A stretch of 64,000 bases of DNA from the NCBI GenBank assembly GCA_964552565.1, contig CAZKGL010000001.1:435061-499060 (forward strand). Reading direction: 5' to 3'. This stretch comes from an uncultured Gammaproteobacteria bacterium. GTDB taxonomy: Bacteria; Patescibacteriota; Patescibacteriia; UBA9934. This document shows positions 7,503-63,781 of the stretch, piece by piece. The notes beneath the pieces are model-generated. The model ran no database searches. It was not told the origin of the DNA and worked only from the letters and a program-made list of their open reading frames with translations. Made by a program: the position numbers and the translations under genes. Position 1 is the first letter of the stretch. Every line of letters begins with the position of its first letter.

Positions 7503-7568
7503 ACCGCCTCCATGCTACCGCACTCCACGCCATCGTTCCACAGGACTCCTGCCCTTCTGCGCTGTGCT

Positions 7569-7577
7569 TGCTATACT
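7569..7577 (+). promoter_or_regulatory. Extended -10 promoter element TGCTATACT upstream of the first BNR surface protein gene
   Basis: TGNTATACT motif 24 nt upstream of the ATG; the same motif recurs upstream of several other genes in the window. Confidence 0.45.
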
Positions 7578-7600
7578 TTCCCCAAACTTATCTTTTGCGT

Positions 7601-10081: not shown

Positions 10082-10109
10082 GGTGTCAGCTAATTTTCTG
10101 ACTTGCGCT

Positions 10110-12521
10110 ATGCGCCATTTGCTTCCCTTCCGCATCGCTTCGATAGGAGCGCTGCTTGTTGCGTCATGGTTCTTCAGTCACTCGGCCCTTGCGGGCTGGT
10201 ACACGCCCACGTCGGGCACGACCGCATCCCTCTACGACATCGACTACTACAGCGGCTACGTCGTTGCGGTGGGCTCGGGCGGGACAATCCGCTTTTCCGT
10301 CGATGCCGGACATTCGTGGTCAACGAGCACGAGCGGCACCACGTCGGCGCTGTACGCAGTCGATTCGGATAGCGGCTATGTCCTCGCCGTCGGCTATGGC
10401 GGCGTCATTCTGCGATCGACCAACTACGGCGCGACATGGACTGCCGTCACGAGCGGCACCACCGCGTCGTTGTACGACGTCATGATGAATCCCTACGGCC
10501 GGGCGTTCGCCGTCGGCTATGGCGGCGTACTCCTCACCTCAACGGACTACGGCGCGACATGGAGCGCACAGACTTCTGGTACGACGAACACGCTCCAGGC
10601 GGTTGACATTTGGGGCACCACCCGCGCCTACGCCGTCGGTTCGAGCGGCACCATCTTGTACTGGAACGGGACGACATGGAGCGCACAAACGTCCGGGACA
10701 ACGGAGACGCTGTACGGTGTCGCGATGTCCGGGACAACGGAAGCCTGGGTGGTGGGCTCCGGCGGCGTGGTACGGAAAACGACCGATGGCACGACGTGGA
10801 GCAGCGTCACGACGATTACCGGCCAAACGCTCTACAGTATCGAGATGTCGTCGAGCACGGCGGGCGGCATCATGGCAAAGACCGGCTTGTACGAAACCAC
10901 GAACGGAACGACATGGGCGGCAGCGTCGACCGGCAGCTGGTCGAGCGTATCCTGGGTGCTGAACGTCGATTACGGCACGATCCGTTTTGCCGTGGGCGCG
11001 AGCGGGAATATCCGTCGCTATGACCACTACGGCCCGGCTGTGGGTGCAGTAACACCGACGACTGCGCTCGAGGGCGTCCCGGTCACCTTCAGCGTTGACG
11101 CGACGGATGAAGCGGTCGTGACCCGATGCGATATCGAAATCCTTTCGGGTGACGGCAGCGGCGTCGTCCTGGACGGCGTGGACAGCGAAGATGACAGCTG
11201 GACGGCAAGCTATACGCTGAGTGCCGGCACCTACACGACCCAAGCGACGTGTTACGATCCGGCCTATAACTTTACGATGGGCGCAAGCAGCACCCTGACC
11301 GTCTCTGCGCCGGCGGACACGACCGAGCCCACTGTCGGGTCGCTCATCGTCGTCGAGGACGCCGTCGGGTCGCCGAGCGTATTCACGGTTTCGGCGTCGG
11401 ACGACGTCGGCATCGACTTCTGCACGCTCGTCATCTTGGAGGGCGACCTCGGCAGTGCGGGATTCCGCATGGCCATCCCGGCGTACGCCACCGCGGACAT
11501 GACCGGATCGGATGGTGCGTACACGGCAACATACACCTTTACTGCGGCAGGCGATTACACGGCATACGCGTACTGCCGCGATGCGGCGGGAAACCAGGCG
11601 AACACCGCGGATGCCATCTTTACGATTGACGCCGCGGCTGCGGCATCGGATACCGACGACACCGCGCCGACCATCGGGACGCCTTCCCCGACGAGCTTCA
11701 CGCTCGGCACCTCGCGCACGGTCACGGCGACTGTCAGCGACGACGTCGGCATCGAGAGCTGCGACCTCTTCATTGACGCTGAGAACGCCGGACTCATGAC
11801 GGTGAGCGGCGGGACAGCGAGCAAGTCCTACACCTTCTCGACAAACGACTGGGCCGACGGCGATACGGCGACGGTGACGGTGGAATGCGCAGACGAGGCC
11901 GGCAACTTCGACAGTACGTCGGTCGTCGTCACGCTCAGCGAGGCGGCGGTCGCGGATGAAGAAACGACAACGGAAGAAGAAACCGCGACGGATGAAGAAA
12001 CGGTAACCGTCGAAGAAGACCTGACAAACGAGGACGGCGACGCAGAGGCAGGCATGCTCATCAAACTCGCCTGCAGCGAAGGCGCGGACGTCAATGACCC
12101 GTGCAAAGCGGTCTACTTCTACAGCGAGTACGACGGCAAGCGCCACGCGTTCCCGAATGAGAAGGTCTACTTTACCTGGTACGCGAACTTCGACGAGGTC
12201 GCGGTCGTGAGCGACGAGTTCATGGCATCCCTCACCTTGGGACGCAACATCACGTACCGCCCCGGCACCCGCATGGTGAAGTTCATTACCGTCAACACGG
12301 TCTACGCGGTGACCCGAGGCGGCGTGCTGCGTCCCATCGACAGCGAGGAAACGGCCATCGCCCTCTACGGCGCGACGTGGAACCAGCAGATCGACGACAT
12401 CTCCGACGCGTTCTACGGCAACTATAGCTTCGGTGACGAAGTGACGAGCGGCGATGACTACGACGCGGAGACTGAGGAAGACGCCATCACCACGATCGAC
12501 GCCAACCTCCAGTGGCAGTAA
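10110..12521 (+). CDS. Paralogous large secreted/surface protein with BNR-like repeats, Ig-like repeats, an acidic linker and the same conserved C-terminal domain
   Basis: Signal peptide (MRHLLPFRIASIGALLVASWFFSHSALA); repeated TW-containing propeller-like motifs (SVDAGHSWSTSTSGTT, TNYGATWTAVTSGTT, TDYGATWSAQTSGTT, TDGTTWSSV); C-terminal domain GMLIKLACSEGADVNDPCKAVYFY...GTRMVKFITVNTVYAV...WNQQIDDISDAFYGNY shared with the first paralog. ATG at 10110; the listed ORF begins at an upstream GTG. Confidence 0.75.
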   Translation: MRHLLPFRIASIGALLVASWFFSHSALAGWYTPTSGTTASLYDIDYYSGYVVAVGSGGTIRFSVDAGHSWSTSTSGTTSALYAVDSDSGYVLAVGYGGVILRSTNYGATWTAVTSGTTASLYDVMMNPYGRAFAVGYGGVLLTSTDYGATWSAQTSGTTNTLQAVDIWGTTRAYAVGSSGTILYWNGTTWSAQTSGTTETLYGVAMSGTTEAWVVGSGGVVRKTTDGTTWSSVTTITGQTLYSIEMSSSTAGGIMAKTGLYETTNGTTWAAASTGSWSSVSWVLNVDYGTIRFAVGASGNIRRYDHYGPAVGAVTPTTALEGVPVTFSVDATDEAVVTRCDIEILSGDGSGVVLDGVDSEDDSWTASYTLSAGTYTTQATCYDPAYNFTMGASSTLTVSAPADTTEPTVGSLIVVEDAVGSPSVFTVSASDDVGIDFCTLVILEGDLGSAGFRMAIPAYATADMTGSDGAYTATYTFTAAGDYTAYAYCRDAAGNQANTADAIFTIDAAAAASDTDDTAPTIGTPSPTSFTLGTSRTVTATVSDDVGIESCDLFIDAENAGLMTVSGGTASKSYTFSTNDWADGDTATVTVECADEAGNFDSTSVVVTLSEAAVADEETTTEEETATDEETVTVEEDLTNEDGDAEAGMLIKLACSEGADVNDPCKAVYFYSEYDGKRHAFPNEKVYFTWYANFDEVAVVSDEFMASLTLGRNITYRPGTRMVKFITVNTVYAVTRGGVLRPIDSEETAIALYGATWNQQIDDISDAFYGNYSFGDEVTSGDDYDAETEEDAITTIDANLQWQ

Positions 12522-36407: not shown

Positions 36408-36450
36408 CGGCAGGAGCTCCCACTCGGGACTCCTGCCGTTGCTCGTTGTT
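36408..36450. terminator. Terminator-like hairpin between convergent 36051-36389 (+) and mnmA (-)
   Basis: CGGCAGGAG...CTCCTGCCG 9-bp stem followed by TTGCTCGTTGTT. Confidence 0.5.
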
Positions 36451-37564
36451 ATGCAGCAATGACGCCGCTACCGATGAGTTCGTCGCCGTCGTAGAACGCG
36501 ATGAACTGCCCCGGCGCGACGGCGCGCTGCGGCGTGTCGAAGGTGACGACCACCCCCGAACCCCCTCCATGAATGGAGGGGGACTTCGCTCCCTCTTGGC
36601 TACCCCCATTCATGGGGGCTAGGGGGTAGACGACACACGGGGCGAGCGGCTGGCGGTAGCGGATGCGCGCCGCGATTTTTTTGTTTTGCGCGTCCGTGAG
36701 GTTGCCCGGAACGGTCTCCGTCAGGTCCGTCGCAACGAGTGCGGAACGGTACAGCGCCGGATCCTCGTCCCCAACCGCGACCACGACCTCGTTCGTCTCC
36801 GGACGGCGTTCGACGACATAGAGCGGCGTCCCGCCGCCGACACCAAGCCCCTCGCGCTGGCCGATGGTGTAGAACGCGAACCCCTTGTGCGTGCCGAGGA
36901 CCTTTCCGTCCGTCGTCACAATGTTTCCCTCGTGCGGCGCAATGCGTTCGGCAAGGAAATCGACCATGTCGACTTTGCCGACAAAGCAGATACCTTGGCT
37001 GTCCTTTTTCTCCGCGACCGGAAGCGCAAACTTCCGTGCACGCTCGCGCACCTCGGGTTTCGTGTACTCGCCAATCGGGAAGATGACGCGGCGCAACTGC
37101 TCCTGCGTCAACTGACAAAGGAAGTAGCTTTGGTCCTTGTTCGTGTCGACGCCGGCATACAACCGCCCGTCCTTCACGCGGGCGTAGTGCCCGGTTGCCA
37201 CGAAGGCGCACCCCAGCGCGTCCGCTTCGCGGAGGAACAGGTCGAACTTCATGTACTTGTTGCACCGCACGTCCGGATTCGGTGTGCGTCCCGCCCTGTA
37301 CTCGGCGATCATGTACTCGTATACCTTGCGGCGATACTCCTCCTCAAAGTCGAACGTATGGAATGGGATACCGAGCTGCGCTGCGACCCGCATCGCGTCG
37401 CGCCGCTCCGCGCGCCAGCCGCAACTTTCGTCCTCAGTCCCGTCGCTCCAGTTCTTCATGAATCCGCCGACGACCTCATAACCCTGTTCCAACAGCAATG
37501 CCGCGCTGACGCTTGAGTCAACGCCGCCAGAGAGGCCCACAAGGACGCGAGGCTTCGGCTGCAT
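36449..37564 (-). CDS. mnmA: tRNA-specific 2-thiouridylase MnmA
   Basis: PP-loop SGGVDSSV, catalytic Cys region and C-terminal barrel (AVAPGQFIAFYDGDELIGSGVI); contains an in-frame family-1 repeat at 36552-36628. Confidence 0.9.
   Translation of the reverse strand: MQPKPRVLVGLSGGVDSSVSAALLLEQGYEVVGGFMKNWSDGTEDESCGWRAERRDAMRVAAQLGIPFHTFDFEEEYRRKVYEYMIAEYRAGRTPNPDVRCNKYMKFDLFLREADALGCAFVATGHYARVKDGRLYAGVDTNKDQSYFLCQLTQEQLRRVIFPIGEYTKPEVRERARKFALPVAEKKDSQGICFVGKVDMVDFLAERIAPHEGNIVTTDGKVLGTHKGFAFYTIGQREGLGVGGGTPLYVVERRPETNEVVVAVGDEDPALYRSALVATDLTETVPGNLTDAQNKKIAARIRYRQPLAPCVVYPLAPMNGGSQEGAKSPSIHGGGSGVVVTFDTPQRAVAPGQFIAFYDGDELIGSGVIAA
36552..36628. repeat. GC-rich double-hairpin repeat (family 1, in-frame copy within mnmA)
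   Basis: ~90% identical to 40752-40828; hairpins CCCCCTCCA-TGAA-TGGAGGGGG and CTACCCCC..GGGGGTAG; encodes PLAPMNGGSQEGAKSPSIHGGGSGVV. Confidence 0.7.
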
Positions 37565-39828: not shown

Positions 39829-40638
39829 CTACGCGGTCAAGCGATCCGCAAACACGGTGAGGAGCAGCAGGCCGAACGCAATGCGATACAGCGCAAACAC
39901 ACCGAACCCCGTCTTGCGGATGATAAAAAACAACAAGCGGATGGCAATGACGCCAAAGATGAGCGCGGAGGCGAAACCGATACCGAGCATGCCCCATGCG
40001 AGGTCTGTCGCCCCGGCATCGACAACATCCCACGCCGTCTTAGCGCCTGCGCCAACGATGGCGGGTATTGCGAGGAGGAAGGAAAAGCGCGCCGCCTGCC
40101 CGCGGTCCATGCCGGAGAACAAGCCGATGGTCATGGTCGCGCCCGACCGCGAGGTGCCCGGGATGAGCGCGAAAGCTTGCGCGACGCCAACGGCAACCGC
40201 CTGGCCCCACGTGACATCGTGGACGCGACGCGCGTCGATGGTGCGCTTCTTTGGGACGTAGTCGGCAATGCCAAGCAGGATGCCCCACGCAATGAGCATT
40301 GCCGCGACGACCGGCAGCGTGCGCACTGCGTCCATCATGCTGCCGAGCGCGGCGCCGACGATGACCGCCGGGATGGTCGCCACGAGCAGCTTCACTGCCA
40401 ACGACCGGTCGGCCCGGACCCTTTCGCGGATGCCCTTCACGAGGGCGCCGATTTCGCGGCGCATGGCGATGACGATGGCGAGCAGCGTCGCAAGGTGGAC
40501 CGCCACATCGAACACCAACCCTTGCGCCTCCCAACCGAAGAGCGCCGGAATCGCAAGAAGGTGGCCGGAGCTCGAAATGGGGAGGAACTCGGTGAGGCCC
40601 TGGACCGCGCCAAGCACTGCCGCCTCAAGGAACGTCAT
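39829..40638 (-). CDS. uppP: Undecaprenyl-diphosphate phosphatase
   Basis: UppP/BacA signature (GAVQGLTEFLPISSSGHL...PGTSRSGATM) with 8 TM helices; its start overlaps the stop of the upstream ATPase gene (ATGA). Confidence 0.85.
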   Translation of the reverse strand: MTFLEAAVLGAVQGLTEFLPISSSGHLLAIPALFGWEAQGLVFDVAVHLATLLAIVIAMRREIGALVKGIRERVRADRSLAVKLLVATIPAVIVGAALGSMMDAVRTLPVVAAMLIAWGILLGIADYVPKKRTIDARRVHDVTWGQAVAVGVAQAFALIPGTSRSGATMTIGLFSGMDRGQAARFSFLLAIPAIVGAGAKTAWDVVDAGATDLAWGMLGIGFASALIFGVIAIRLLFFIIRKTGFGVFALYRIAFGLLLLTVFADRLTA

Positions 40639-42530
40639 AGCTCTTCGTCAAACGTTATGCGCTCGCCGGGCATGACCTGCTGCGGCGCGGCGGCTGGCGC
40701 GTCCCCGCCGTTCCCGCGGTTGCGGCGTCGGCGTCGGCGTTTGCGGCCAACCACCCCCGAGCCCCCTCCATCAATGGAGGGGGACCCGGTTCCCTCTTGG
40801 CTACCCCCATTCATGGGGGCGAGGGGGTTGAGCATGTCGCCTGCACGTGGTGCGGCGTCGTCGTGCGCCGGGACGGGTTTCGGCGGTGACGCCTCGGGTT
40901 TCTTTACGGGGGAAAGTGCGGACAACGACATGCTTTCGCCCGCCTCCCGCGCAACAGGCTCACCGTCATGCACCTTCGGCGCCGGCCCGGACTCCTTGCC
41001 CTTCTGGCGTACCTCCTTCTTTTCCTTCCCCTTCTTCCGCTCCTCCATCACGATGGGGTGGCACTCTTCACAGTAAATCGGGCGCGACCGGTCAAGCTCC
41101 ACCGGCAACAAAAACTTCTTCCCGCAGCGGGTGCAGTCATACTCGTGGCTGTACCGCTTCTTTTTGTCCTCCTTCTTTTGCGCCGCGACCGCGGCGAGCG
41201 CTCCGGCCACGTCGACGTTCGGGTCAAACCCCGCCCACGTCGCGACGTGCTCTTCAATCTGCGCCTTGTTGCCGGCGTACCGTTCGCGCGACTGCGCGAT
41301 GACCCGCTCCGCGCTGCCCGTGCGCTGGGCGATGGGCGGCAGCGTCTGCGCCGAAAACGGATGGCTCGTCACGCCGTCAATCATGAGTTTGACGTAGATG
41401 GCGTGCTTCGGGAGGTTGATGATGTCTTCCGGCGTGAACCGCGGCATGAGCTCGTTCTCGAGGAAGACGGCGTCCGGCGAGCCGACGCGGAAGAACACCA
41501 TGCTGCCGACGTTGCCGAACACTGCGTCCCGCACCGCAGTCGACGTCCCCTGCTCGAGCTGGGCGATGTACTGGTGCGCCATGATGAGGTTGAGCCGGTA
41601 CTTGCGCGCTTCAGAGAGCACGCTTGCGAACGATTCGACGGCAAAGTTCTGGAATTCGTCGACGTACAGGTAGAAATCGTTCCGCTCGGACTCCGGGACA
41701 TTCACGCGCTCCATGGCCGACATCTGGATCTTCGTGATGAGCATGCCGCCGAGGAGGCGCATCGCATCTTCACCGACGCGCCCCTTGGAGAGGTTGATGA
41801 TGAAAATCTTCTGGCTGTCCATGATGTCGCGGATGTTGATGGACGACTTCGCCTGCGCGACGATGTTGCGAATGACCGACGACGACAAGAATTGGCCGAT
41901 CTTGTTTTGGATCGGCGCAACCGCCTCGGTCGCGAATTTCGCATCATATTGGGCGAACTCCTGCAGCCAGAACTGTTTGACGATCGGGTCGGTGACGTTC
42001 GTGATGATCTGCGCGCGGTAGTCCTTATCCGACAGCATGCGATTGATGCCGAGCAGCGTGGATCCCGACGTGTCGAGGAGCGCAAGGATGGTGTTATTCA
42101 AAATGTACTCCATGCGCGCCGACCACACGTTCTCCCAGATCTTTTTGAACACCGACATGAGGCTCGACGCGACGAGGTGCTTCATGGTCGGATCCACCGA
42201 CTCGAGGATGTTGAAGCCGATCGGGTAGTCGAGGTCCGACGGATTGAAATACACGACGTCGTTGATGCGCCAGGACGGGATGTAATCGATCAGCTTTTCC
42301 GCGGTGTCGCCGTGCGGATCGACATAACAACACCCGTGGCCGGCGTAGATGTCGGCCAGGATCATGTTCTCGAGCAGCGTCGTCTTGCCCATGCCGGTCT
42401 TTCCGATGACGTACATGTGCCGGCGGCGGTCGTCGGTCTTGACGCCGAACTTGCGCATCGCATTCCGGAAGTTGGTCTTGCCGAAATAGATGACGTCGCT
42501 CTCGTGGTCATGTTCGTAACGCATTGGCAT
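40635..42530 (-). CDS. FtsK/HerA/TraG-superfamily P-loop ATPase resembling type IV coupling proteins (TraD/VirD4-like), soluble, with a C-terminal zinc ribbon and basic tail
   Basis: Walker A VIGKTGMGKTT, YVDPHGD (like the DPKG motif of TraD/VirD4), Walker B FYLYVDEFQNF, Zn ribbon YDCTRCGKKF...IYCEECH, Arg-rich tail; contains an in-frame family-1 repeat. Confidence 0.65.
   Translation of the reverse strand: MPMRYEHDHESDVIYFGKTNFRNAMRKFGVKTDDRRRHMYVIGKTGMGKTTLLENMILADIYAGHGCCYVDPHGDTAEKLIDYIPSWRINDVVYFNPSDLDYPIGFNILESVDPTMKHLVASSLMSVFKKIWENVWSARMEYILNNTILALLDTSGSTLLGINRMLSDKDYRAQIITNVTDPIVKQFWLQEFAQYDAKFATEAVAPIQNKIGQFLSSSVIRNIVAQAKSSINIRDIMDSQKIFIINLSKGRVGEDAMRLLGGMLITKIQMSAMERVNVPESERNDFYLYVDEFQNFAVESFASVLSEARKYRLNLIMAHQYIAQLEQGTSTAVRDAVFGNVGSMVFFRVGSPDAVFLENELMPRFTPEDIINLPKHAIYVKLMIDGVTSHPFSAQTLPPIAQRTGSAERVIAQSRERYAGNKAQIEEHVATWAGFDPNVDVAGALAAVAAQKKEDKKKRYSHEYDCTRCGKKFLLPVELDRSRPIYCEECHPIVMEERKKGKEKKEVRQKGKESGPAPKVHDGEPVAREAGESMSLSALSPVKKPEASPPKPVPAHDDAAPRAGDMLNPLAPMNGGSQEGTGSPSIDGGGSGVVGRKRRRRRRNRGNGGDAPAAAPQQVMPGERITFDEEL
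40752..40828. repeat. GC-rich double-hairpin repeat (family 1, in-frame copy within the T4CP-like ATPase gene)
   Basis: Near-identical to 36552-36628; encodes PLAPMNGGSQEGTGSPSIDGGGSGVV in the C-terminal tail. Confidence 0.7.
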
Positions 42531-53681: not shown

Positions 53682-53891
53682 TTAGTGGTTCTTGTTGTCG
53701 ATGCCGAACGCCGTATGGAGCCAGCACCACGCGGTGAAGCTCTCGATGAGCGCGATCCACGCGATGACGAACAGCGCCCAATTCACCGGTTCGCTGGCAT
53801 ATTCCGGGGCCCATGGACCGAGCCACCAAAACGCGAGCAGGAAACGGAGTACCCTATCGAGCTTGCCCAAATTTTGTTTGAGCATATGCAC
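53682..53891 (-). CDS. Small membrane protein, DUF2892 (YgaP-like) type
   Basis: MLKQNLGKLDRVLRFLLAF... resembles the conserved DUF2892 N-terminus (GxxDRxxRxxxG) followed by two TM helices. Confidence 0.5.
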   Translation of the reverse strand: MHMLKQNLGKLDRVLRFLLAFWWLGPWAPEYASEPVNWALFVIAWIALIESFTAWCWLHTAFGIDNKNH

Positions 53892-53936
53892 AATGCAAAG
53901 AATAAACTGATACTACTATAGCACCCCCGACTCGCC

Positions 53937-54090
53937 GCATCTACAAAAAATGTCCGGCCGGACAAAAAGTGTAGACGGGGGGCGTTACACTTTTTTCACG
54001 ATCGTCGATTTTGTGTAACGCTCCTGGTAACCAAAACCTCACGGCCGTAAAAAATTGATATCCATCACAAAACCGCCCTTGCGAGCGGTT
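53937..54090. repeat. 154-bp direct repeat, copy 1 (identical to 55542-55695)
   Basis: Perfect 154/154 identity; contains the palindrome TGTCCGGCCGGACA and a terminator-like hairpin AAAACCGCCC-TTGCGA-GCGGTT at its high-coordinate end. Confidence 0.9.
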
Positions 54091-54098
54091 CTGCGGGG

Positions 54099-54743
54099 CT
54101 ATTCAAGTCGCGCAGTCGTGATAAGCCCTTCAAGTGTAGCGAAGACGGCAGCCTCGTCGACCGCCTGGATACTGCCGGGATCCCAGTTGCCGATGTTGCC
54201 GGTCGCGACGATCGCCGCAAGCTCAACGCAATTCCCATCGTGCATTGCGTGGTACACCCGCCTTTCAAAACTCGTACCCGCAGCGGCTTCTCCAATAACC
54301 CCGTAATACCATGTAACGCCGCCGATCTCTTTCGTTTCCGTAAGCTCGACGGTGCCCGTGCCATAGCGAGCGAGGTTGCACGACAAAGCCGTATCGTTTT
54401 CGCTTATCCTACTAAATGATGAAAGATGCACCCAGGCGCCAAACAGGTTGGTGCCGTCATACGGCGCCTCATCAAGAAGGAACGTCGAGCGCACGGGGGG
54501 TGGGTTGCCGTTACTGCTCAGCATGTCGATGAGTGCGCTTCCCGTCTGATAGTCGGAAGCTTCGTCGGCAGCAACGGTAAATTCGTCTGGGTCGTATGCG
54601 AGCGTCAGGCCGAGCGTGCTATCGGAGAACGTCACGCTGCTTGCTTCCGAGGAGGAGGGGGCGGGACGTAAGGCTACGATCGCCAGAAAGACGGCCGCAC
54701 AGATCAATCCGCCCATGAGTATCGCGCGTGATGCCACGGTCAT
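54099..54743 (-). CDS. Hypothetical secreted/membrane-anchored protein (214 aa)
   Basis: N-terminal TM/signal segment (ILMGGLICAAVFLAIVAL); lies within the repeat-bracketed cassette. Confidence 0.5.
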   Translation of the reverse strand: MTVASRAILMGGLICAAVFLAIVALRPAPSSSEASSVTFSDSTLGLTLAYDPDEFTVAADEASDYQTGSALIDMLSSNGNPPPVRSTFLLDEAPYDGTNLFGAWVHLSSFSRISENDTALSCNLARYGTGTVELTETKEIGGVTWYYGVIGEAAAGTSFERRVYHAMHDGNCVELAAIVATGNIGNWDPGSIQAVDEAAVFATLEGLITTARLE

Positions 54744-54804
54744 AGATAGCCTTAAGAGTACCTTGAATAATTATTCCTGCACAGCCCGCTCGTCAAGGCA
54801 ATCA

Positions 54805-54828
54805 CAAAACCGCCCGGAGGCGGTTTTG
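54805..54828 (-). terminator. Intrinsic terminator inside the repeat-bracketed cassette, downstream of the 89-aa gene
   Basis: AAAACCGCCC-GGA-GGCGGTTTTG. Confidence 0.55.
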
Positions 54829-54848
54829 AGTGTGACACCTCTGTTTTT

Positions 54849-55118
54849 TTACTGCCAGAACCAAATCATGTACGAGCCGCGATACCCGTTCTGATACACG
54901 CAGTTCTCGGAACCAAGTTGGATGCCGAATGGCACTTTCCTTACCCCTGGCGCCCCGTCACCGCATGGGACCACACTTGCGTCGGCGGCGAGCTTCACCG
55001 CATCCTCTCCATGTCTCGTACGAATTTTTCGCATCGCTTCGTCGGTATCCATCCATGGCGCCCAGGCGCAAAGGCCGATGACGAGCACAACAACAGCGAT
55101 AACATGGGAATATTTCAT
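54849..55118 (-). CDS. Small secreted protein (89 aa)
   Basis: Signal peptide (VIAVVVLVIGLCAWAPW). Confidence 0.45.
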   Translation of the reverse strand: MKYSHVIAVVVLVIGLCAWAPWMDTDEAMRKIRTRHGEDAVKLAADASVVPCGDGAPGVRKVPFGIQLGSENCVYQNGYRGSYMIWFWQ

Positions 55119-55142
55119 ATTCGCGTTCTCCGAAGTAAAAGT

Positions 55143-55493
55143 CTAGCTTTGAAGCCCGGTCCTCCGTCTCGTAGCCGCCATCACGATCGCGGATATGACC
55201 GCGAAGAAGCCAGCGTCAAGCAGGAATGCGCTGCCCGAAAAGTCATCTTCTATACCAAGGCTTCCGATAACGCTCGTCCCTGCGCTGTCCTTTAAAAATG
55301 GCCTTGGAAATCCCGCTTGCGGCAAGTATTGATAGCACAGGCCATACGGGTTGCCTTCTGTCACGGGACAAAGATTGCCCGTCATGGCCTCATAGCGCGA
55401 GCGAAACACGTAACCAGACAATACGGCCAGCACGAGCCCGAACGAAAGTGCTAACAACACGAACCGTACGCGCCCCATCGTTTTTGCTTCCAT
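55143..55493 (-). CDS. Small membrane protein (116 aa)
   Basis: N-terminal TM (FVLLALSFGLVLAVLSGYVF) and C-terminal TM (FFAVISAIVMAAT). Confidence 0.45.
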   Translation of the reverse strand: MEAKTMGRVRFVLLALSFGLVLAVLSGYVFRSRYEAMTGNLCPVTEGNPYGLCYQYLPQAGFPRPFLKDSAGTSVIGSLGIEDDFSGSAFLLDAGFFAVISAIVMAATRRRTGLQS

Positions 55494-55541
55494 AGTCGAG
55501 TCACTATACCGCGTGCCAACAGCTTAGCAACCTCATCCTGA

Positions 55542-55695
55542 GCATCTACAAAAAATGTCCGGCCGGACAAAAAGTGTAGACGGGGGGCGTTACACTTTTT
55601 TCACGATCGTCGATTTTGTGTAACGCTCCTGGTAACCAAAACCTCACGGCCGTAAAAAATTGATATCCATCACAAAACCGCCCTTGCGAGCGGTT
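55542..55695. repeat. 154-bp direct repeat, copy 2 (identical to 53937-54090); immediately downstream of secA
   Basis: Perfect identity to copy 1; its terminal hairpin also serves as the secA terminator (followed by TTTTG). Confidence 0.9.
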
Positions 55696-55704
55696 TTGTG
55701 CGCG

Positions 55705-58464
55705 CTAGGCGCCGTGGCATTTCTTGTACTTTTTCCCGGACCCACACGGGCAGGGGTCGTTGCGGCCGACATTATCGAACTTCTTTTCATCCGATGATGG
55801 CGTGGTTTGTGTGACGACCGTTGTCGCGGTCGATGCGTTCTTGGCTGCGCCGCTCATTTGCATGCCCTTGATGACCTGCGGCGCCAAGTCGATCAGCTTC
55901 TTCGTCGCGACCGCCTGGTCGAGGAGCTTAAAGAGGTTGTAGGCGACCTCGTGCTGTACCTCGTCCTGCATCGCGTTATACAAACGGAACGACTCATGCT
56001 TGTACTCGACAAGCGGGTCGCGCTGGGCGTAACCGCGCAGGCCGATGGTGTGGCGCAGGTACGTCATCTCGTCCAAATGACGCATCCAATGGCTGTCCAT
56101 GGCGCGCAAAAGGACGGTGCGTGCGATACGTTGTACCTGTTCCTGGCCGCCGAAGGTTTCCACCGTCGCATCGTACTTCGCATTCAAGTATCCCATCATC
56201 CGTTCGATGACCGCGCTGCGCTGCGCTGCCAACTTCTCCTTGTCGCGCGACAGCGACGGCAGGTCGGTACGGATGGCGGCCTTCGTTGCATCATCAAGCG
56301 GCACAATAGTGTGCAGCGTCTCGATAATTTCCTTCGGGTCCCAATCGCCCGCCTGTTTCTTGTCCGTAAAGTCGTCCGGGATGTCGGTATCGACGCCGGT
56401 GTGGAAAAGGACCACGCGCTCAAGCTCGCGCTCTACCATGCCCATGACTTCGGTGTGCGCAAACGCCAAATCGCCCTGCAAGAGCCGTCGGCGGCGTTCA
56501 TAGGTCGCAAGACGGTGCTTGTTGAGCACATCGTCATACTCAAGGACGTGCTTGCGGGTGTCGTAGTTGTGCCCTTCCACGCGCTGCTGCGCCTTCTCGA
56601 GCGCACTCGTGATCATCTTGCTTTCGATCGGGGTCGTGTCGTCAAAGCCGAGCTTGTCCATCATCCCCTTCACGCGGTTGCTGCCGAAAATGCGCATGAG
56701 GTCGTCGTCGAGCGACACGAAGAACTGCGTCGTGCCCGGGTCGCCCTGGCGCCCAGCGCGGCCGCGCAGCTGGTTATCGATGCGACGCGACTCATGGCGC
56801 TCCGTACCAATCACGCACAGGCCGCCAAGCGCGCGGATCTCCTCTGCCTCGTTCGCGTCCGGCGGGTTGCCGCCGAGGATGATGTCCACGCCGCGGCCGG
56901 CCATGTTCGTCGCGACGGTCACCGCACCCTTGCGGCCGGCCTGCGCGATAATCTCCGCTTCACGTTCGTGGTGCTTCGCGTTCAGGAGTTCGTGGCGGAC
57001 GCCGGCCATGCGCAACAGTTCGCTCAAGCGCTCGTTCTTGTCGACAGAAATGGTACCGATAAGCACCGGCTGCCCCTTTTCCTGAAGCGCCTTCACCTCT
57101 TTGACGATGGCGAGGAACTTGCCGTTCTCCGTCTTGTAGATGCGGTCCGGCAGGTCGACGCGCGCGTTCGTCTTGTTGGTCGGGATCTGCACGACCTCGA
57201 GGTTGTACGTCTTTGCAAACTCCTCAGCCTCGGTCGCCGCGGTACCGGTCATGCCGGCGAGCTTCGTGTAGAGGCGGAAGTAATTTTGGTAGGTAATCGT
57301 CGCGAGCGTGCGGCTTTCGCGCTGGATTTTGACGCCCTCCTTCGCCTCGATCGCCTGGTGCAAGCCTTCGCTGTAGCGGCGGCCTTCCATGACGCGGCCC
57401 GTGAACTCGTCGACGATCATCACCTCGCCGTCGCGGACGATGTAGTCGCGGTCGCGCAAAAACAGCGCATGCGCTTTCAGCGCCTGCTCGGCGTGGTGGA
57501 CCATCTCAAGGCCGCCCTGCTCGTACAAGTTGTCGATGCCAAGCGCCTTCTCTACCTTCTGCAACCCGGTCTCGGTGAAGGTCGACGAGCGCATCTTTTC
57601 GTCGATGTTGTAGTCCTCGCCCTCCTTCAGGCCGCGGACGATGTCGGCAAACCGGTAGTACGTGTCCGCGGACTCCGCAGCCGGCGCACTGATGATGAGC
57701 GGCGTGCGCGCCTCGTCAATAAGGATGGAGTCGACCTCGTCGACGATGGCGTAGTGCAGTTCGCGCTGCACCATGTGCGCCGCGTCCTGCGCCATGTTGT
57801 CGCGCAAATAATCAAACCCGTACTCGTTGTTCGTGCCGTAGGTAATGTCGCAGGCGTAGGCATCCTTGCGGCTGCCCGGACGGAGATAGTCCATCTGCAC
57901 GCGGAACGAGCTCGTTGACGCCTTCGCTTCGCCTTCTTCCGCCGTCTCCGGCACCGGCGCCTTGTACGCCGCATCAAAGACATAGCCGCTCTCGTGCTGG
58001 ATGCAGCCGACCGTCAGGCCTAAAAACCCGAACACGCGGCCCATCCAGACGGCGTCGCGCTTGGCGAGGTAGTCGTTGACCGTGACGACGTGGACGCCTT
58101 TGCCGGCGAGGGCGTTGAGGTACGTCGGCGCCACGGCGGTGAGCGTCTTCCCTTCACCGGTACGCATTTCCGAAATCTGCCCGCGATGGAGTGCGAGGCC
58201 GCCCATGAGCTGGACGTCGTACTGGCGCTGGCCGAGCGCGCGCTTGGACGCTTCCCGGACCACGGCAAACGCCTCGAACGCCAGGTCGTCGATAGCCGCG
58301 CCGTCCGCGAGGCGCTGCATGAATTCTGCGGTCTTCGCCTTCAGTTGGTCGTCCGTCAACGCCGCGATGGCGGGTTCAAACGCATTGATGGCGTCGACGT
58401 CGGCACGCAGCTGTTTGAGGACCTTTTCGTTGGGATCGCCGAAGATTTTGGAGAGGAAGGACAT
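55705..58464 (-). CDS. secA: Preprotein translocase ATPase SecA
   Basis: DEAD-like motor motifs, preprotein-binding domain, C-terminal zinc-binding tail CPCGSGKKYKKCHG; probable start MSFLSKIFGDPNEK at 58462-58464. Confidence 0.9.
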   Translation of the reverse strand: MSFLSKIFGDPNEKVLKQLRADVDAINAFEPAIAALTDDQLKAKTAEFMQRLADGAAIDDLAFEAFAVVREASKRALGQRQYDVQLMGGLALHRGQISEMRTGEGKTLTAVAPTYLNALAGKGVHVVTVNDYLAKRDAVWMGRVFGFLGLTVGCIQHESGYVFDAAYKAPVPETAEEGEAKASTSSFRVQMDYLRPGSRKDAYACDITYGTNNEYGFDYLRDNMAQDAAHMVQRELHYAIVDEVDSILIDEARTPLIISAPAAESADTYYRFADIVRGLKEGEDYNIDEKMRSSTFTETGLQKVEKALGIDNLYEQGGLEMVHHAEQALKAHALFLRDRDYIVRDGEVMIVDEFTGRVMEGRRYSEGLHQAIEAKEGVKIQRESRTLATITYQNYFRLYTKLAGMTGTAATEAEEFAKTYNLEVVQIPTNKTNARVDLPDRIYKTENGKFLAIVKEVKALQEKGQPVLIGTISVDKNERLSELLRMAGVRHELLNAKHHEREAEIIAQAGRKGAVTVATNMAGRGVDIILGGNPPDANEAEEIRALGGLCVIGTERHESRRIDNQLRGRAGRQGDPGTTQFFVSLDDDLMRIFGSNRVKGMMDKLGFDDTTPIESKMITSALEKAQQRVEGHNYDTRKHVLEYDDVLNKHRLATYERRRRLLQGDLAFAHTEVMGMVERELERVVLFHTGVDTDIPDDFTDKKQAGDWDPKEIIETLHTIVPLDDATKAAIRTDLPSLSRDKEKLAAQRSAVIERMMGYLNAKYDATVETFGGQEQVQRIARTVLLRAMDSHWMRHLDEMTYLRHTIGLRGYAQRDPLVEYKHESFRLYNAMQDEVQHEVAYNLFKLLDQAVATKKLIDLAPQVIKGMQMSGAAKNASTATTVVTQTTPSSDEKKFDNVGRNDPCPCGSGKKYKKCHGA

Positions 58465-58538
58465 AGCGTCGATTACCGCAGAAGTTTGCCCCAAAAATGG
58501 GGGTTAGGCAAGCACCAGCCGATAGAATCGACTGTTTC

Positions 58539-58583: not shown

Positions 58584-59975
58584 CTATTGCACCAGACGCC
58601 GCGCCACCTCGTCGATATCGCCGGCGCCCATGACGATGACGACGTCGCCGTCACGCAGATGCGCACGGAGCTTCGCCTCGGTTGCGTCGAGGTCCTGGGC
58701 GTACTCCATCGGACGCACCGCTCCGCTCCCCGCAGGAATCCGCTGCTGGATGGCGTTCAGGAGATCCATACTCGAGATCGCATCCGCCTCGTCCGTCCGG
58801 CCTTGCACACCGTAAATTTCCGTGAGGATAAGGACATCAGCGTCGTCGAACGCCGTGACGAACTCGTCGAAGAGTTCTTTCGTGCGGTTGTGCTGATGCG
58901 GCTGGAAGGCGAGCACGATGCGCCGACCAGGGAAAAACTCTTTCGCCGCGGCGAGCGTGCCGGTAATGGCAGTCGGATGGTGGCCGTAATCGGAGATGAC
59001 ATCGGCGCCGTTGCACGTGCCGACGCGCTCAAAGCGGCGCCAGATGCCGGTGAAGTTCATCAGCGTCTGGAGGGCGATGTGCGCACCAATCCCGTATTCC
59101 GACGCGATCGCGAGCGCGGCGAGCGCGTTCATCATGTTGAATGCGCCGGGAATCTGCAGCATGAGGTCGCCGATGATCGCGCGCCGGCGCAAGAATCCGC
59201 GCGACCGGTACAGGCGCAACAACTGATAGCCGCCTTCGAAACGGCGCGGCTCGGCGTCCATGGCGTCACCGAAGAACTTCAGCGTCGCCGTGCCGTCGCC
59301 GCGATAGATGCGCCGCGCGCGGTCGGCGGCATTGTGGAAAAATGTCTTTGTCGTCTGCATGCCGAGCTGGCGGAACATCGCTTCCATGTCCGCAAGGTCC
59401 TTGTACACGTCCGTGTGGTCCAGCTCGACGTTCGTGACGAGCGTCGTCTCCGGGTGCAGCGCGAGCACTTTCCGCTTGTACTCGTCGCCCTCGACGATAA
59501 GGATGTCGCTTGCGCCGATGCGCAGGTTCCCCAGCTCCCAGCCGGGAACGAGGCTGCCGACGAAGACCGTCGGGTCCATGCCGGCGTCTTCAAAAATCTT
59601 TCCGGTCATCGCCGTCGTCGTGGATTTCCCGTTCGTCCCCGTCACGCAAATCGTACGCATCGTCTTTGCAAGCTCCCCAAGGAATCCGAAGTGCCCGAGC
59701 TGGCGGATGCCGCGCCGCGCGGCCTCCGCGCGCTCGACGTTGTCCTCCCCCGCCGCCTCGGTGTACACGACAAGATCGCACGATGCGGGGATGTTCGCCG
59801 CGTCGTGGCCGATGGTGATCGTCGCGCCCCGCGCGGCGAGGTCGTCGGTCATCGCGGACCGGACCGTGTCGGAGCCGCTCACCGCAACGCCGCGCGAAAG
59901 CAAAAATTTCGCGACCGCGCTCACGCCGATCCCTCCCGCGCCGATGCAGTGCGCATGCTTCACCTCGTCCTGCAT
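58584..59975 (-). CDS. murC: UDP-N-acetylmuramate--L-alanine ligase
   Basis: Mur ligase motifs (GIGGIGVSAVA, TGTNGKSTT) and a C-terminal domain; 463 aa. Confidence 0.9.
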   Translation of the reverse strand: MQDEVKHAHCIGAGGIGVSAVAKFLLSRGVAVSGSDTVRSAMTDDLAARGATITIGHDAANIPASCDLVVYTEAAGEDNVERAEAARRGIRQLGHFGFLGELAKTMRTICVTGTNGKSTTTAMTGKIFEDAGMDPTVFVGSLVPGWELGNLRIGASDILIVEGDEYKRKVLALHPETTLVTNVELDHTDVYKDLADMEAMFRQLGMQTTKTFFHNAADRARRIYRGDGTATLKFFGDAMDAEPRRFEGGYQLLRLYRSRGFLRRRAIIGDLMLQIPGAFNMMNALAALAIASEYGIGAHIALQTLMNFTGIWRRFERVGTCNGADVISDYGHHPTAITGTLAAAKEFFPGRRIVLAFQPHQHNRTKELFDEFVTAFDDADVLILTEIYGVQGRTDEADAISSMDLLNAIQQRIPAGSGAVRPMEYAQDLDATEAKLRAHLRDGDVVIVMGAGDIDEVARRLVQ

Positions 59976-59976
59976 A

Positions 59977-60303
59977 CTAGTCGTTTGCGGGACGCTCCGT
60001 CATGCGCTCCTTGCGTTCGATAAGCTGGCGCTTGAGGTCGTCCTTCGCGACATCGATCGCCGCGTACAGGTCCTCCTCGACCGACTCGGCGCGGAGCGTC
60101 GTGCCCGGGATGCTCATGGTAAATTCCGCCCGGAAAATCTTCCCCTTATTGTGGTGCTCGCTCGTCTTGCCGACGTCCGCAGACACGTCGCATGGGTTGT
60201 AACGCTCGCAAAACTTCTCAAGCGACTGGAGCTTCTGCTCGACGTACGCACGGATCGCCTCCGTGACCTCCATGTTCGTACCGATGATTTCCGTGATGCG
60301 CAT
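59977..60303 (-). CDS. hpf: Ribosome hibernation promoting factor (HPF/RaiA, short form)
   Basis: Sigma-54 modulation protein fold signature (MRITEIIGTNMEVTEAIRAYVEQKL...); ATG at 60301-60303; 1 nt before the murC start. Confidence 0.8.
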   Translation of the reverse strand: MRITEIIGTNMEVTEAIRAYVEQKLQSLEKFCERYNPCDVSADVGKTSEHHNKGKIFRAEFTMSIPGTTLRAESVEEDLYAAIDVAKDDLKRQLIERKERMTERPAND

Positions 60304-60324
60304 AGAGTTGCATTTTACCATGAG

Positions 60325-62482: not shown

Positions 62483-63781
62483 ATGATGAACCACCTGTTT
62501 CCCGCTGACCCGGCAGTCGCAAAGGCCCTCGAGGGCGAGCTCAACCGCGAACGCGACGGGCTTGAGATGATCCCCTCGGAAAATTTCGTGTCGCCGGCAG
62601 TGCTTGAGGCGCTCGGATCGATCGGCACGAACAAGTATTCGGAGGGGTACCCGGGAGGCCGGTACTACGGTGGCTGCGAATTCGTCGACGCAATCGAGAA
62701 CCTTGCTCGGGACCGCGCAAAGGCGCTGTTCAACGTGACGCACGCCAACGTCCAGCCGGCGTCGGGATGCGCGGCGAACATTGCGGTCATGTTTGCGTTG
62801 CTCGACCCGGGAGACACGCTCATGGGCATGTCGCTTGCGTTTGGGGGCCACATGACGCACGGCCGCCCCGGGAACTTCTCCGGCAAGTACTACACGTCGG
62901 TGCAGTACACGTCGGACGCAAACGGGTTCATGGATTTTGATCAGATGGCCGCCATGGCGAAGGAGCACCGACCGAAACTCATCATTGTCGGCGCGACGGC
63001 GTATCCGCGCATCATCGACTGGAAAAAGGCGCGCGAGATCGCGGACAGCGTCGGCGCGTTCTTGCTGGCCGACGTCTCGCATATCTCCGGCCTCATCATT
63101 TCCGGCGACCATCCGTCTCCTGCGGGAATCGCGGACGTCATCACGACGACGACGCACAAGACACTGCGCGGCCCGCGCGGTGCGATGATCTTGTGTAACG
63201 GCAATCCGTCGACGCCGCTCAAGGCCGCGGAGCGCACGCGCGAAAACCTGCCGACGCTTATCGACCGCGCCATCATCCCCGGCCTGCAGGGCGGGCCGCA
63301 CAACCACCAGACGGCGGCAATCGCGGTTGCCCTCAATGAGGCCGCCCGTCCGGACTTCACCGAGTACGGCCATCAGGTCATGAAAAACGCGAAGGCGCTT
63401 GCCGCAGCACTCACCGCGCGCGGCTATGCCCTCGTCACCGGAGGTACGGACAACCATCTCATGGTCGTCGACCTCACGAACAACGGCGTCTCGGGCAAAG
63501 AGGCGCAGGTTGCGCTGGACGCGGCAGGCATCACCGTCAACAAGAACACCGTGCCGTTCGATCCCCGCAAACCGTTCGACCCGTCGGGCATTCGCCTTGG
63601 CACTCCGGCGCTGACGACCCGCGGGATGCGCGAAGCGGATATGGAGCGCATCGCCGGCTGGATCGACGCCGCGATCCTTGCGCGCACCAACGCCGACCGT
63701 CTCTCGACAATCCGCAAAGAGATTCACGACTTCACTGCGCAGTTTCCGCTCTACGCCGGCCTCAGCTATACCGGCGAATAA
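62483..63781 (+). CDS. glyA: Serine hydroxymethyltransferase
   Basis: SHMT PLP site (TTTTHKTLRGPRGA) and global conservation; 432 aa. Confidence 0.9.
   Translation: MMNHLFPADPAVAKALEGELNRERDGLEMIPSENFVSPAVLEALGSIGTNKYSEGYPGGRYYGGCEFVDAIENLARDRAKALFNVTHANVQPASGCAANIAVMFALLDPGDTLMGMSLAFGGHMTHGRPGNFSGKYYTSVQYTSDANGFMDFDQMAAMAKEHRPKLIIVGATAYPRIIDWKKAREIADSVGAFLLADVSHISGLIISGDHPSPAGIADVITTTTHKTLRGPRGAMILCNGNPSTPLKAAERTRENLPTLIDRAIIPGLQGGPHNHQTAAIAVALNEAARPDFTEYGHQVMKNAKALAAALTARGYALVTGGTDNHLMVVDLTNNGVSGKEAQVALDAAGITVNKNTVPFDPRKPFDPSGIRLGTPALTTRGMREADMERIAGWIDAAILARTNADRLSTIRKEIHDFTAQFPLYAGLSYTGE

Follow-up and report, generated by a model that had tools for sequence, protein, structure and literature searches.

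What event has left the same 154-bp sequence on both sides of three small genes directly behind secA, in a bacterium belonging to the CPR, a group with tiny, repeat-poor genomes? We have analyzed a window of 64 kb (the whole stretch of DNA considered here), which represents 7.6% of a Candidatus Uhrbacteria genome of about 0.84 Mb. A previous sequence-only reading of this DNA had described perfect direct repeats at this place, and the alignment bore this out. Copy 1 (53937-54090) and copy 2 (55542-55695), on the minus strand like the genes around them, are identical at 154 of 154 positions and are separated by 1605 bp from start to start. The match stretches to 157 nt if one mismatch is allowed (C at 54091 versus T at 55696). 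A 40-mer of the repeat has exactly two occurrences in the window and none in any of 100 shuffled versions, and neither BLAST nor a motif search detected a further or partial copy in the 64 kb. The placement had also been read properly, with copy 2 right after secA and copy 1 right after the cassette. Specifically, copy 2 begins 9 nt past the stop codon of secA (55705) and fills the gap from there to the promoter of c116, while copy 1 begins 8 nt past the stop codon of c214 (54099) and fills the gap up to the promoter of a YgaP-like gene. The edges of the repeat are sharp and the flanks of the two copies are unrelated. Their alignment revealed neither terminal inverted repeats nor duplicated target bases shared by the flanks. 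The 3' coding end of secA is not duplicated in the window, and the repeat starts only after its stop codon. The lower GC content that had been suspected was apparent too, with 47% in the repeat and 55.8% in the 1451-bp interior versus 62.4% over the window.

The repeat is a 154-bp non-coding intergenic module. Besides a terminator hairpin (T1) and a weak second one, it contains two palindromic units of 32 nt in inverted orientation. Folded as a whole, it reaches -72.7 kcal/mol on the minus strand (z = -4.3) and -62.1 kcal/mol on the plus strand (z = -3.5), with G-U pairs favouring the sense strand, and the predicted structure consists of four separate hairpins, all given here on the minus strand. 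T1 (54066-54093; 55671-55698 in copy 2) is a strong terminator hairpin, CAGAACCGC-TCGCAAGG-GCGGUUUUG plus a U-tract, with folding energies of -22.7 and -22.2 kcal/mol (z about -4.6). The version in copy 2 is symmetric, with an A-tract and a T-tract on both sides. Its stem type, AAAACCGC...GCGGTTTT, is common to other terminators here and in the related locus L003, and terminators of this stem type recur at the gene boundaries of this region in two species. H2 (54030-54059; 55635-55664) is a weak A/U-rich hairpin around ACGGCCGU that is not significant alone (-5.4 kcal/mol, z = +0.3). H3 (53982-54021; 55587-55626), with GCGUUACAC...GUGUAACGC around CGAUCG, folds at -16.0 kcal/mol (z = -4.8) and repeats the H4 unit in inverted orientation, the two 32-nt arms (53942-53973 and 53986-54017) being 72% complementary and 12 nt apart. 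This 32-nt unit has no other occurrence in the 64-kb window. Another palindromic repeat family is found in the same genome, in-frame in two genes. Finally, H4/T2 (53938-53977; 55543-55582), detected by folding and by the terminator scan (matches at 53964-53951 and 55569-55556), has the apical stem UGUCC-GGCC-GGACA followed by U6 and folds at -16.2 kcal/mol (z = -5.0). It resembles a second (backup) intrinsic terminator, and the repeat ends 7-8 nt beyond its U-run. The terminator hairpin and the palindrome TGTCCGGCCGGACA reported earlier for this sequence are both present as described. We also considered a mini-ORF or leader peptide inside the module (frames of 8 and 34 codons on the minus strand), rejected for lack of a ribosome-binding site or any other support.

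Downstream of both copies we found predicted promoters. Beyond copy 2, an extended -10-like box, TGCTAAGCT (55521-55529, minus strand), lies 12 nt from the end of the repeat and 36 nt upstream of the c116 start, with TTGCTA-16-TATAGT (55530-55503) as an alternative promoter for the same gene. Beyond copy 1, the extended -10 box TGCTATAGT (53915-53923, minus strand) is located 13 nt from the end of the repeat. Its distance to the YgaP-like gene downstream is 32 nt. In the related locus L009, where the repeat does not exist, the orthologous gene is preceded by TGCTATGCT, with which this box aligns. Many genes of the window have the motif TGnTAnnnT 20-36 nt ahead of their starts. The last bases of the repeat were also examined as a -35 element (TTGTAG or TAGATG), and this candidate is not claimed, the match being poor (3/6) and the spacing inconsistent. 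Since the repeat takes up all of the sequence from a stop codon to the next -35 region, its role, to judge from sequence and position, is probably to shield the downstream unit from read-through.

The first enclosed gene, c116 (55143-55493, minus strand, GC3 0.62), codes for 116 aa with two transmembrane segments (11-29 and 89-107). Its family is uncharacterised, counts 97 cluster representatives at E<=1e-3 and is recognizable by the motif VGNLC...NP.G.C...LP..GFP...D..G.SV.G.LG.ED and an invariant Cys pair, and the alignment of this family was too divergent for a locus scan. The next one, c89 (54849-55118, minus strand), is an orphan of 89 aa whose N-terminus has a hydrophobic, signal-like segment (5-23). 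Its GC3 of 0.62 is the minimum of the window, and its only match among 5.8 billion proteins was to itself. The third, c214 (54099-54743, minus strand, 214 aa, GC3 0.66), combines an N-terminal transmembrane anchor with an extracytoplasmic domain of ~175 aa that fits no known family. It has a single homologue, P0122 (64% identity), which is syntenic in L003, and viral contigs contained no relatives of it. A model of c214 made with AlphaFold from a 2-sequence alignment was unusable (pLDDT 52). The three proteins were said to have signal or transmembrane segments and no known family. The former is right, with one or two hydrophobic segments each, and the latter holds for Pfam, where none of the three found a family, but c116 does sit in an uncharacterised family and c214 has its one homologue. 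Orthologues of c116 and c89 were not found in L003, whose own 116-aa gene is unrelated. Between c89 and c214 (54767-54831, minus strand) we detected an internal terminator, AAAACCGCCTCCGGGCGGTTTTGTGAT (54803-54831), and a promoter-like TTGACG-18-AATTAT (54796-54767), indicating that the segment consists of two transcription units, c116-c89 and c214. Upstream of copy 2 is secA (55705-58494, minus strand), in hpf-murC-secA synteny and with Candidatus Uhrbacteria as best named relatives. The first gene after copy 1 is the YgaP-like gene (53682-53891, minus strand), coding for a small membrane protein (PF11127, Pfam E = 4e-10). Its orthologue in L009 is 76% identical, adjoins a Ser_hydrolase gene and is also downstream of secA; this gene is ancestral to the region.

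Among the 55 ORFs of the window, c116, c89 and c214 have the three lowest GC3 values (mean 0.80, sd 0.066). Such values are typical of L003 and L009 (about 55% GC, GC3 0.5-0.7). Comparison with related genomes had been proposed as a check, and in all those examined the region differs. L004, L005, L008 and L009 have hpf-murC-secA followed by differing small genes, and the contig of L003 stops short of secA and shares genes only downstream, where the c214 homologue is found upstream of the PNPOx, NUDIX and HD genes, in the same neighbourhood. The repeat, c116 and c89 were in none of these five Uhrbacteria loci. In two relatives, short duplications of the secA 3' end flank small insertions, which marks the secA 3' flank as a place where duplicative insertion has happened repeatedly. 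Sensitive BLAST of the repeat against about 90 loci, including 10 Uhrbacteria relatives, returned generic terminator stems only, and BLAST of the repeat and segment against phage and plasmid collections gave no match. Exact scans with 20-22-mers of the repeat (one in genome_contigs, two in metagenome_contigs and three in viral_contigs) gave 0 matches, which says little because the host species is absent from genome_contigs, as indicated by a FolD-anchored scan with a best match of 79%.

With these data, we consider it about an even call that the pair of repeats is the footprint of recent recombination in the hypervariable region downstream of secA. A single recent event in the interval between secA and NUDIX/secDF would have imported or re-joined the 1.45-kb segment (c116-c89 and c214), with the composition of a lower-GC relative. 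Look-alike terminator/promoter spacers would likely have recombined by a RecA-type or illegitimate mechanism, either by a single crossover of DNA bearing the repeat or by ectopic copying of the repeat between spacers. Terminators of the same type could supply the microhomology at the upstream edge of the repeat. No donor of the segment was found in our searches, and the H2-H4 part of the repeat had no homologue in the relatives' loci or in the genome, metagenome, viral, phage and plasmid collections. The syntenic c214 homologue in L003 indicates that c214 at least is old in the neighbourhood, and copying of the repeat in situ is more in keeping with this than an import of the entire segment. 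The cassette had been interpreted before as an insertion or an excisable segment. The variable region, the atypical composition and the absence of the repeat, c116 and c89 from relatives speak for that interpretation. As c214 is syntenic in L003, however, a single foreign insertion does not suffice to explain the cassette, which comprises two transcription units, and no mobility gene or target duplication was found. Neither integrase nor integron core site, inverted ends or target duplication was found at the locus; transposition and site-specific integration are both unlikely. A 154-bp perfect direct repeat is, on the other hand, a plausible deletion substrate. Recombination between the two copies could delete the segment, leaving secA, one repeat and the YgaP-like gene, or could amplify it in tandem.

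A different origin would be that the repeat, or only the H3/H4 doublet, belongs to a family of dispersed, mobile or recombining palindromic intergenic elements (REP/BIME/REPIN-, MITE-, ERIC- or Correia-like), that two copies of it ended up in neighbouring spacers and that the cassette between them is incidental. The layout of H3 and H4, as closely spaced inverted units, is that of a REPIN or BIME, both copies occupy 3' intergenic positions as REP elements do, and the genome does have another palindromic repeat family. Nevertheless, we regard this origin as unlikely, since no further repeat or 32-nt unit appeared in the 64 kb or in about 10 related loci, and three sub-patterns of the repeat had zero matches in genome, metagenome and viral collections (which do not include the host species). 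Besides, the repeat has no terminal inverted repeats or target-site duplication, both copies have identical outer boundaries that include a gene-specific terminator, and an identity of 100% would be unusual for copies inserted independently.

The arrangement itself might be unstable: the chromosome could read secA, one repeat and the YgaP-like gene beside a separate circle of 1605 bp, there could be a tandem array, or the population could be mixed, and the identity of the copies could be due in part to consensus polishing. The only other assembly, GCA_016177675.1, differs by just 5 SNPs in 10.7 kb and represents the same population, and this sister draft is not an independent confirmation for that reason. 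The independent k=31 Logan assembly of SRR12113420 (L002 and L007) confirms the junctions of the repeat with c116, c214 and the YgaP-like gene, with contigs that end exactly 30 nt into the repeat at every junction. The connections in the assembly graph (secA to repeat, c214 to repeat, repeat to c116 and repeat to the YgaP-like gene) fit a circle, an array or a mixture equally well. With its 154-157 bp the repeat exceeds typical Illumina reads, and the Logan contigs break inside it. The draft assembly L001, from the same population as well, shows indels precisely at the two T1 hairpins, which points to assembly problems at that place. Still, the same path from secA through repeat, segment and repeat to the YgaP-like gene was obtained in two assemblies, paired-end inserts normally exceed 154 bp and make this path resolvable by assemblers, and the 1.6-kb unit has no gene for replication or mobilisation. 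A search for strain variants with exact proteins retrieved only the sister draft and the Logan contigs, and among them no variant without the segment. Altogether an unstable arrangement appears rather unlikely to us.

It is more doubtful that the repeat is a functional RNA, either as a small RNA or as a cis-regulatory leader or attenuator, or a protein-binding region that co-regulates the two small membrane-protein genes following it, with selection or gene conversion keeping the copies identical. The module has much predicted structure, its last hairpin carries a U-run like that of a terminator, and its G-U pairs are on the side of the sense strand. The palindrome TGTCCGGCCGGACA, centred near -58, is a candidate binding site, and both copies precede a promoter and a small membrane-protein gene at equal spacing. 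Yet the repeat gave no Rfam match at gathering thresholds or at E<=10 (only tRNAs elsewhere and sub-threshold noise were found), and a sigma-70-type scan, to be read with the caution that CPR promoters are poorly known, detected no promoter inside it on either strand. These results, together with the position of both copies upstream of the extended -10 box of the next gene, argue against a leader or riboswitch. As the predicted promoters of c116 and the YgaP-like gene lie after the repeat, and that of the latter is orthologous in L009, which lacks it, the repeat would be outside those mRNAs. No homologue that could be used for conservation or covariation was found in the relatives or collections searched, and the sharp edges and 100% identity point to recent copying and not to conservation.

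We find it similarly improbable that the repeat is an undescribed cassette-junction element of CPR bacteria, a hairpin cluster recurrent in the genome and serving as a portable recombination site, free of a dedicated integrase, integron- or REPIN-like and specific to Uhrbacteria. If this were true, it would let units of small secreted or membrane proteins be captured, shuffled, excised (as 1.6-kb circles) or amplified behind secA. Least of all do we believe in a site-specific recombination site (attL/attR of a degraded islet or an attC-like cassette junction): the direct repeats do bracket promoter-proximal small ORFs of unknown function beside the 3' end of a conserved gene, the module is hairpin-rich as attC is, and the secA 3' end duplications of the relatives resemble leftovers of integrative elements that target 3' ends, but the annotated genes (about 47.2-53.9 kb and 55.7-64 kb of the window) include no integrase or recombinase, the three enclosed genes code for small membrane or secreted proteins, neither strand of the repeat has a GTTRRRY or RYYYAAC core site (the nearest, GTTACAC and GTGTAAC, both fail), it forms four hairpins and not the single long bulged hairpin of attC, the segment contains a terminator and promoters of its own, and the secA coding end is excluded from the repeat.

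Returning to the recombination footprint, its interest lies in the proteins concerned. The gain and loss of small surface and secreted proteins in CPR bacteria, thought to be mediators of episymbiosis, are to our knowledge poorly documented. This locus would be a concrete example, useful for studies of variation at the strain level: a recently recombined segment that occupies a variable slot beside secA and could potentially be deleted or amplified. It also suggests that look-alike terminator/promoter spacers act as recombination substrates. It looks like ordinary genome plasticity, and only if the repeat turned out to be dispersed and active would a new mechanism be involved.

Several known systems have features in common with this locus. 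Integron cassettes with attC sites, as in the VCR arrays of Vibrio, also have small, mostly orphan ORFs and structured repeats of about 120-150 bp, but here there are only two repeats, without core sites, IntI or a bulged hairpin, and the genes have their own promoters. The REP/BIME/REPIN systems and MITEs (ERIC, Correia, RUP and the RPE of Rickettsia) share the inverted palindromic units, the 3' intergenic location and the terminator-like hairpins. They differ in that our repeat is present in the window as two adjacent copies, has neither inverted termini nor target duplication and includes an ordinary gene terminator; besides, no RAYT (IS200/IS605-type) or other transposase was found among the annotated genes of the window. 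Tandem or backup intrinsic terminators are similar in the predicted stem and U-run of T1 and T2, in series after a stop codon, although here about 85 nt of extra structured sequence separate T1 from T2. The minimal mobile elements of Neisseria, and similar variable slots whose genes are swapped through homologous recombination in the flanks, have the same organization of conserved anchors (here hpf-murC-secA on one side and NUDIX/HD and secDF on the other) with differing small genes in between, and the composition of our segment matches that of relatives. However, internal perfect repeats do not normally border minimal mobile elements, and natural transformation in Uhrbacteria is only inferred. 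Finally, the deletable or amplifiable units flanked by direct repeats and the Campbell-type (single-crossover) insertions that arise by homologous recombination have the same perfect repeats of >100 bp, short segment and no mobility genes, with the differences that our repeat is a complete terminator-to-promoter spacer and not a gene fragment or an IS, and that neither a deleted nor an amplified variant was seen here. Since its length is above the minimum for RecA-dependent exchange, loss or amplification of the segment is to be expected.

The SecA and c214 proteins place this DNA in a Candidatus Uhrbacteria genome (CPR/Patescibacteria; contig of 838,942 bp). All genes of the locus lie on the minus strand, in the order hpf (59977-60321), murC, secA (55705-58494), repeat copy R2 (55542-55695), three small genes named by their protein length in amino acids, c116 (55143-55493), c89 (54849-55118) and c214 (54099-54743), repeat copy R1 (53937-54090), a gene for a YgaP-like 69-aa membrane protein (PF11127; 53682-53891) and small ORFs, followed by PNPOx, Ser_hydrolase, NUDIX and HD genes. 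The sequence-only reading had described an exact direct repeat, one copy after secA and the other after the small genes, around DNA of lower GC, and all of this was borne out. The two copies are identical at 154/154 positions (157 nt with one mismatch if extended), their starts are 1605 bp apart, and each begins 8-9 nt past a stop codon. The GC content is 47% in the repeat, 55.8% in the 1451-bp interior and 62.4% in the window. A 40-mer taken from it is present exactly two times in the window, and 100 dinucleotide-preserving shuffles never produced it.

The upstream edge of R falls inside the base of the first hairpin, T1 (CA[A/G]AACCGC-UCGCAAGG-GCGGUUUUG plus a U-run), the terminator already proposed from the sequence, which is strong (-22 kcal/mol, z about -4.6). 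It is followed by H2, weak and not significant (z = +0.3), H3 (GCGUUACAC...GUGUAACGC; -16.0 kcal/mol, z = -4.8) and H4 (apical stem UGUCC-GGCC-GGACA, then U6; -16.2 kcal/mol, z = -5.0), which a terminator scan also matched. R ends 7-8 nt beyond the U-run of H4. H3 and H4 are one 32-nt unit in inverted copies, 72% complementary and 12 nt apart. The whole repeat folds better on the minus strand (-72.7 kcal/mol, z = -4.3) than on the plus strand (-62.1 kcal/mol, z = -3.5) because the G-U pairs exist on the sense strand only.

This inverted doublet would fit a dispersed family of the REP/BIME/REPIN or MITE type, as would the fact that the genome hosts another family of palindromic repeats. We consider such an origin of R unlikely, since short-word BLAST and a dedicated motif search found no third copy, full or partial, in the 64-kb window, and none is seen in the relatives; R also lacks inverted termini and a target duplication, and R1 and R2 have the same outer edges. 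Exact-pattern scans for parts of R were empty in metagenome_contigs, viral_contigs and genome_contigs, the last of which lacks the species itself (FolD, encoded just beyond the window edge and used as species anchor, has a best match of 79%), and no match came from the collections of phages and plasmids either. The other palindromic repeat is 82 nt long with two GC-rich hairpins (36549-36630 and 40750-40831, 90% identical). It lies within two unrelated minus-strand genes, one for an MnmA-like tRNA 2-thiouridylase (36449-37564) and one for a TraG/VirD4-like coupling protein (40635-42530). Both read it in the same frame, which gives their products the extra peptide PLAPMNGGSQEG..SPSI.GGGSGVV. 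In this in-frame insertion it resembles the Rickettsia palindromic elements (RPEs). A partial copy is found in a related locus (L011, 5800-5834; 86% over 37 nt). Elsewhere in the window, two adjacent paralogous genes of 812 aa (7568-10006 and 10083-12521) contain blocks (274 nt and 119 nt) that are 79-85% identical between them in nucleotide sequence, as well as internal short repeats.

The draft genome GCA_016177675.1 (JACOUU010000007.1) has the same arrangement as the window. Over 10.7 kb, just 5 SNPs set the two apart, along with four indels (54078-54080, 55683-55699, about 59003-59040 and about 63266-63306), so it is the same population and not an independent strain. Two of the indels fall exactly in T1, one in each copy, and remove parts of it; the four are probably assembly errors in the draft. 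Another coincides with the point at which murC of the draft breaks up into ORFs of 393 aa and 61 aa. The raw reads SRR12113420 have also been assembled independently at k=31 (Logan). In that assembly, a 1511-bp contig corresponds to the interior and ends 30 nt into R at both sides, and a second contig starts 30 nt inside R and runs on into ygaP, so the reads do contain the junctions R to c116, c214 to R and R to ygaP. The path through R is ambiguous at such short k-mers. This ambiguity of the assembly graph and the draft indels in T1 could point to an artefact of the assembly or the population (a circle of 1605 bp, a tandem array or a mixture of alleles), with an identity possibly induced by polishing. 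Yet two assemblies follow one and the same path, and no replication gene lies in the 1605-bp unit, making such an origin quite improbable.

Past R2, after 12 nt, comes an extended -10-like box, TGCTAAGCT, 36 nt upstream of the c116 start codon; past R1, after 13 nt, a similar one, TGCTATAGT, 32 nt upstream of ygaP. Many intergenic sites in the window have the pattern TGnTAnnnT 20-36 nt ahead of a start, and the ygaP box can be aligned with TGCTATGCT, which precedes the orthologous gene in L009, a relative without R. Inside R no sigma-70-type promoter was predicted on either strand. R is thus the entire spacer from the stop codon to the -35 position of the next predicted promoter, and would lie outside the downstream mRNAs, which argues against a riboswitch or leader role. 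A terminator or insulator would be its simplest function. R is structured, and both copies stand at the same distance from a predicted promoter, which could also suit a functional RNA or a regulatory region to which proteins bind, but with no internal promoter, no Rfam family even at E<=10 and no homologues of R found, we regard this as very unlikely. R can hardly be an att or attC site, having neither core sites nor a single long hairpin; the annotated genes around it include no integrase, and the enclosed genes have predicted promoters of their own.

The segment comprises two predicted transcription units, c116-c89 and c214, between which lie a terminator (54803-54831) whose stem is of the T1 type and a promoter-like TTGACG-18-AATTAT. 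As previously noted, all three products carry signal or membrane segments: two TM segments in c116, a signal-like segment in c89 and an N-terminal anchor in c214, ahead of a domain of about 175 aa (AlphaFold pLDDT 52, unusable). That they belong to no known family holds for the orphan c89; c214 has a single homologue (64% identity) and c116 belongs to an uncharacterised family of 97 representatives (E<=1e-3), covered by no Pfam model, with an invariant Cys pair and the motif VGNLC...NP.G.C...LP..GFP...D..G.SV.G.LG.ED. Its named members are all "hypothetical protein", one from an actinobacterial (Kineosporiaceae) MAG. They are small two-TM proteins of about 105-120 aa (P0125-P0220), sometimes fused in longer proteins, and the conserved motif is extracytoplasmic. 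The GC3 values of c116, c89 and c214 (0.62, 0.62 and 0.66) are the three lowest among the 55 ORFs of the window (mean 0.80, sd 0.066). They are ordinary in related Uhrbacteria of about 55% GC (L003, L009), which suggests that the three genes were acquired from a lower-GC relative.

Four relatives (SecA 74-77% identical) all have hpf-murC-secA, followed by differing small genes: two NUDIX genes in L004; a 23S-IVP protein, a 109-aa gene and NUDIX genes in L005; NUDIX directly in L008; and genes of 48, 65 and 144 aa, NUDIX, and then YgaP-like and Ser_hydrolase in L009. This comparison, which the sequence-only reading had proposed, found R, c116 and c89 in none of the four. Ancestral to the interval are the pair of YgaP-like and Ser_hydrolase genes, NUDIX and HD. 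As in the window, the c214 homologue of L003 precedes PNPOx, NUDIX and HD genes; there it has unrelated genes on both sides and only a plain terminator after it. Together these patterns indicate that the secA-secDF interval is a gene-swapping slot, that c214 is old in its neighbourhood and that R seems specific to this species. The last 21-26 nt of secA, stop codon included, are duplicated around small insertions in L009 (12737-12762 and 12904-12929, flanking 141 nt with a 48-aa CxxC mini-ORF) and L004 (9267-9287 and 9329-9349, flanking 41 nt with a 13-bp-arm palindrome), showing that duplicative insertion has repeatedly affected the secA 3' flank in this clade. In the slot, gene boundaries of both the window species and L003 carry terminators with the stem AAAACCGC...GCGGTTTTGT, a stem type found elsewhere in the window too; such look-alike spacers could have provided microhomology at the upstream edge of R. 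The terminator after c89 with its TTGACG -35 box (54760-54835) resembles two L003 spacers (1550-1600 and 2695-2725), a terminator with TTGACG after the c214 homologue and a terminator after an unrelated 183-aa gene. Between the window and L003, these intergenic modules seem better conserved than the genes between them.

The explanation that we favour, to which we give roughly an even chance, is that R is a terminator-to-promoter spacer of an ordinary kind, if unusually elaborate, whose perfect copies record one recent recombination in a hypervariable slot. R-bearing DNA with c116-c89-c214 may have recombined with a resident R (Campbell-type, or by exchange with DNA of a lower-GC relative), or ectopic copying may have carried R from the spacer between c214 and ygaP to that between secA and c116, or in the opposite direction. 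All three genes have a composition that speaks for import, and the synteny of c214 in L003 speaks for copying in situ. The insertion or recombination proposed earlier is supported in part, by the variable slot, the atypical GC3 and the absence of R, c116 and c89 from the relatives, but not by the syntenic c214 homologue. A perfect identity over 154 bp is sufficient for RecA-dependent exchange, so under either event the segment should be deletable, leaving secA-R-ygaP, or amplifiable. Were R a dispersed, active cassette-junction element, which we think highly improbable, the locus would be more significant. As a recombined spacer, it would represent a fresh instance of a known form of genome plasticity, a segment flanked by direct repeats in a variable slot, in this case in a CPR genome.
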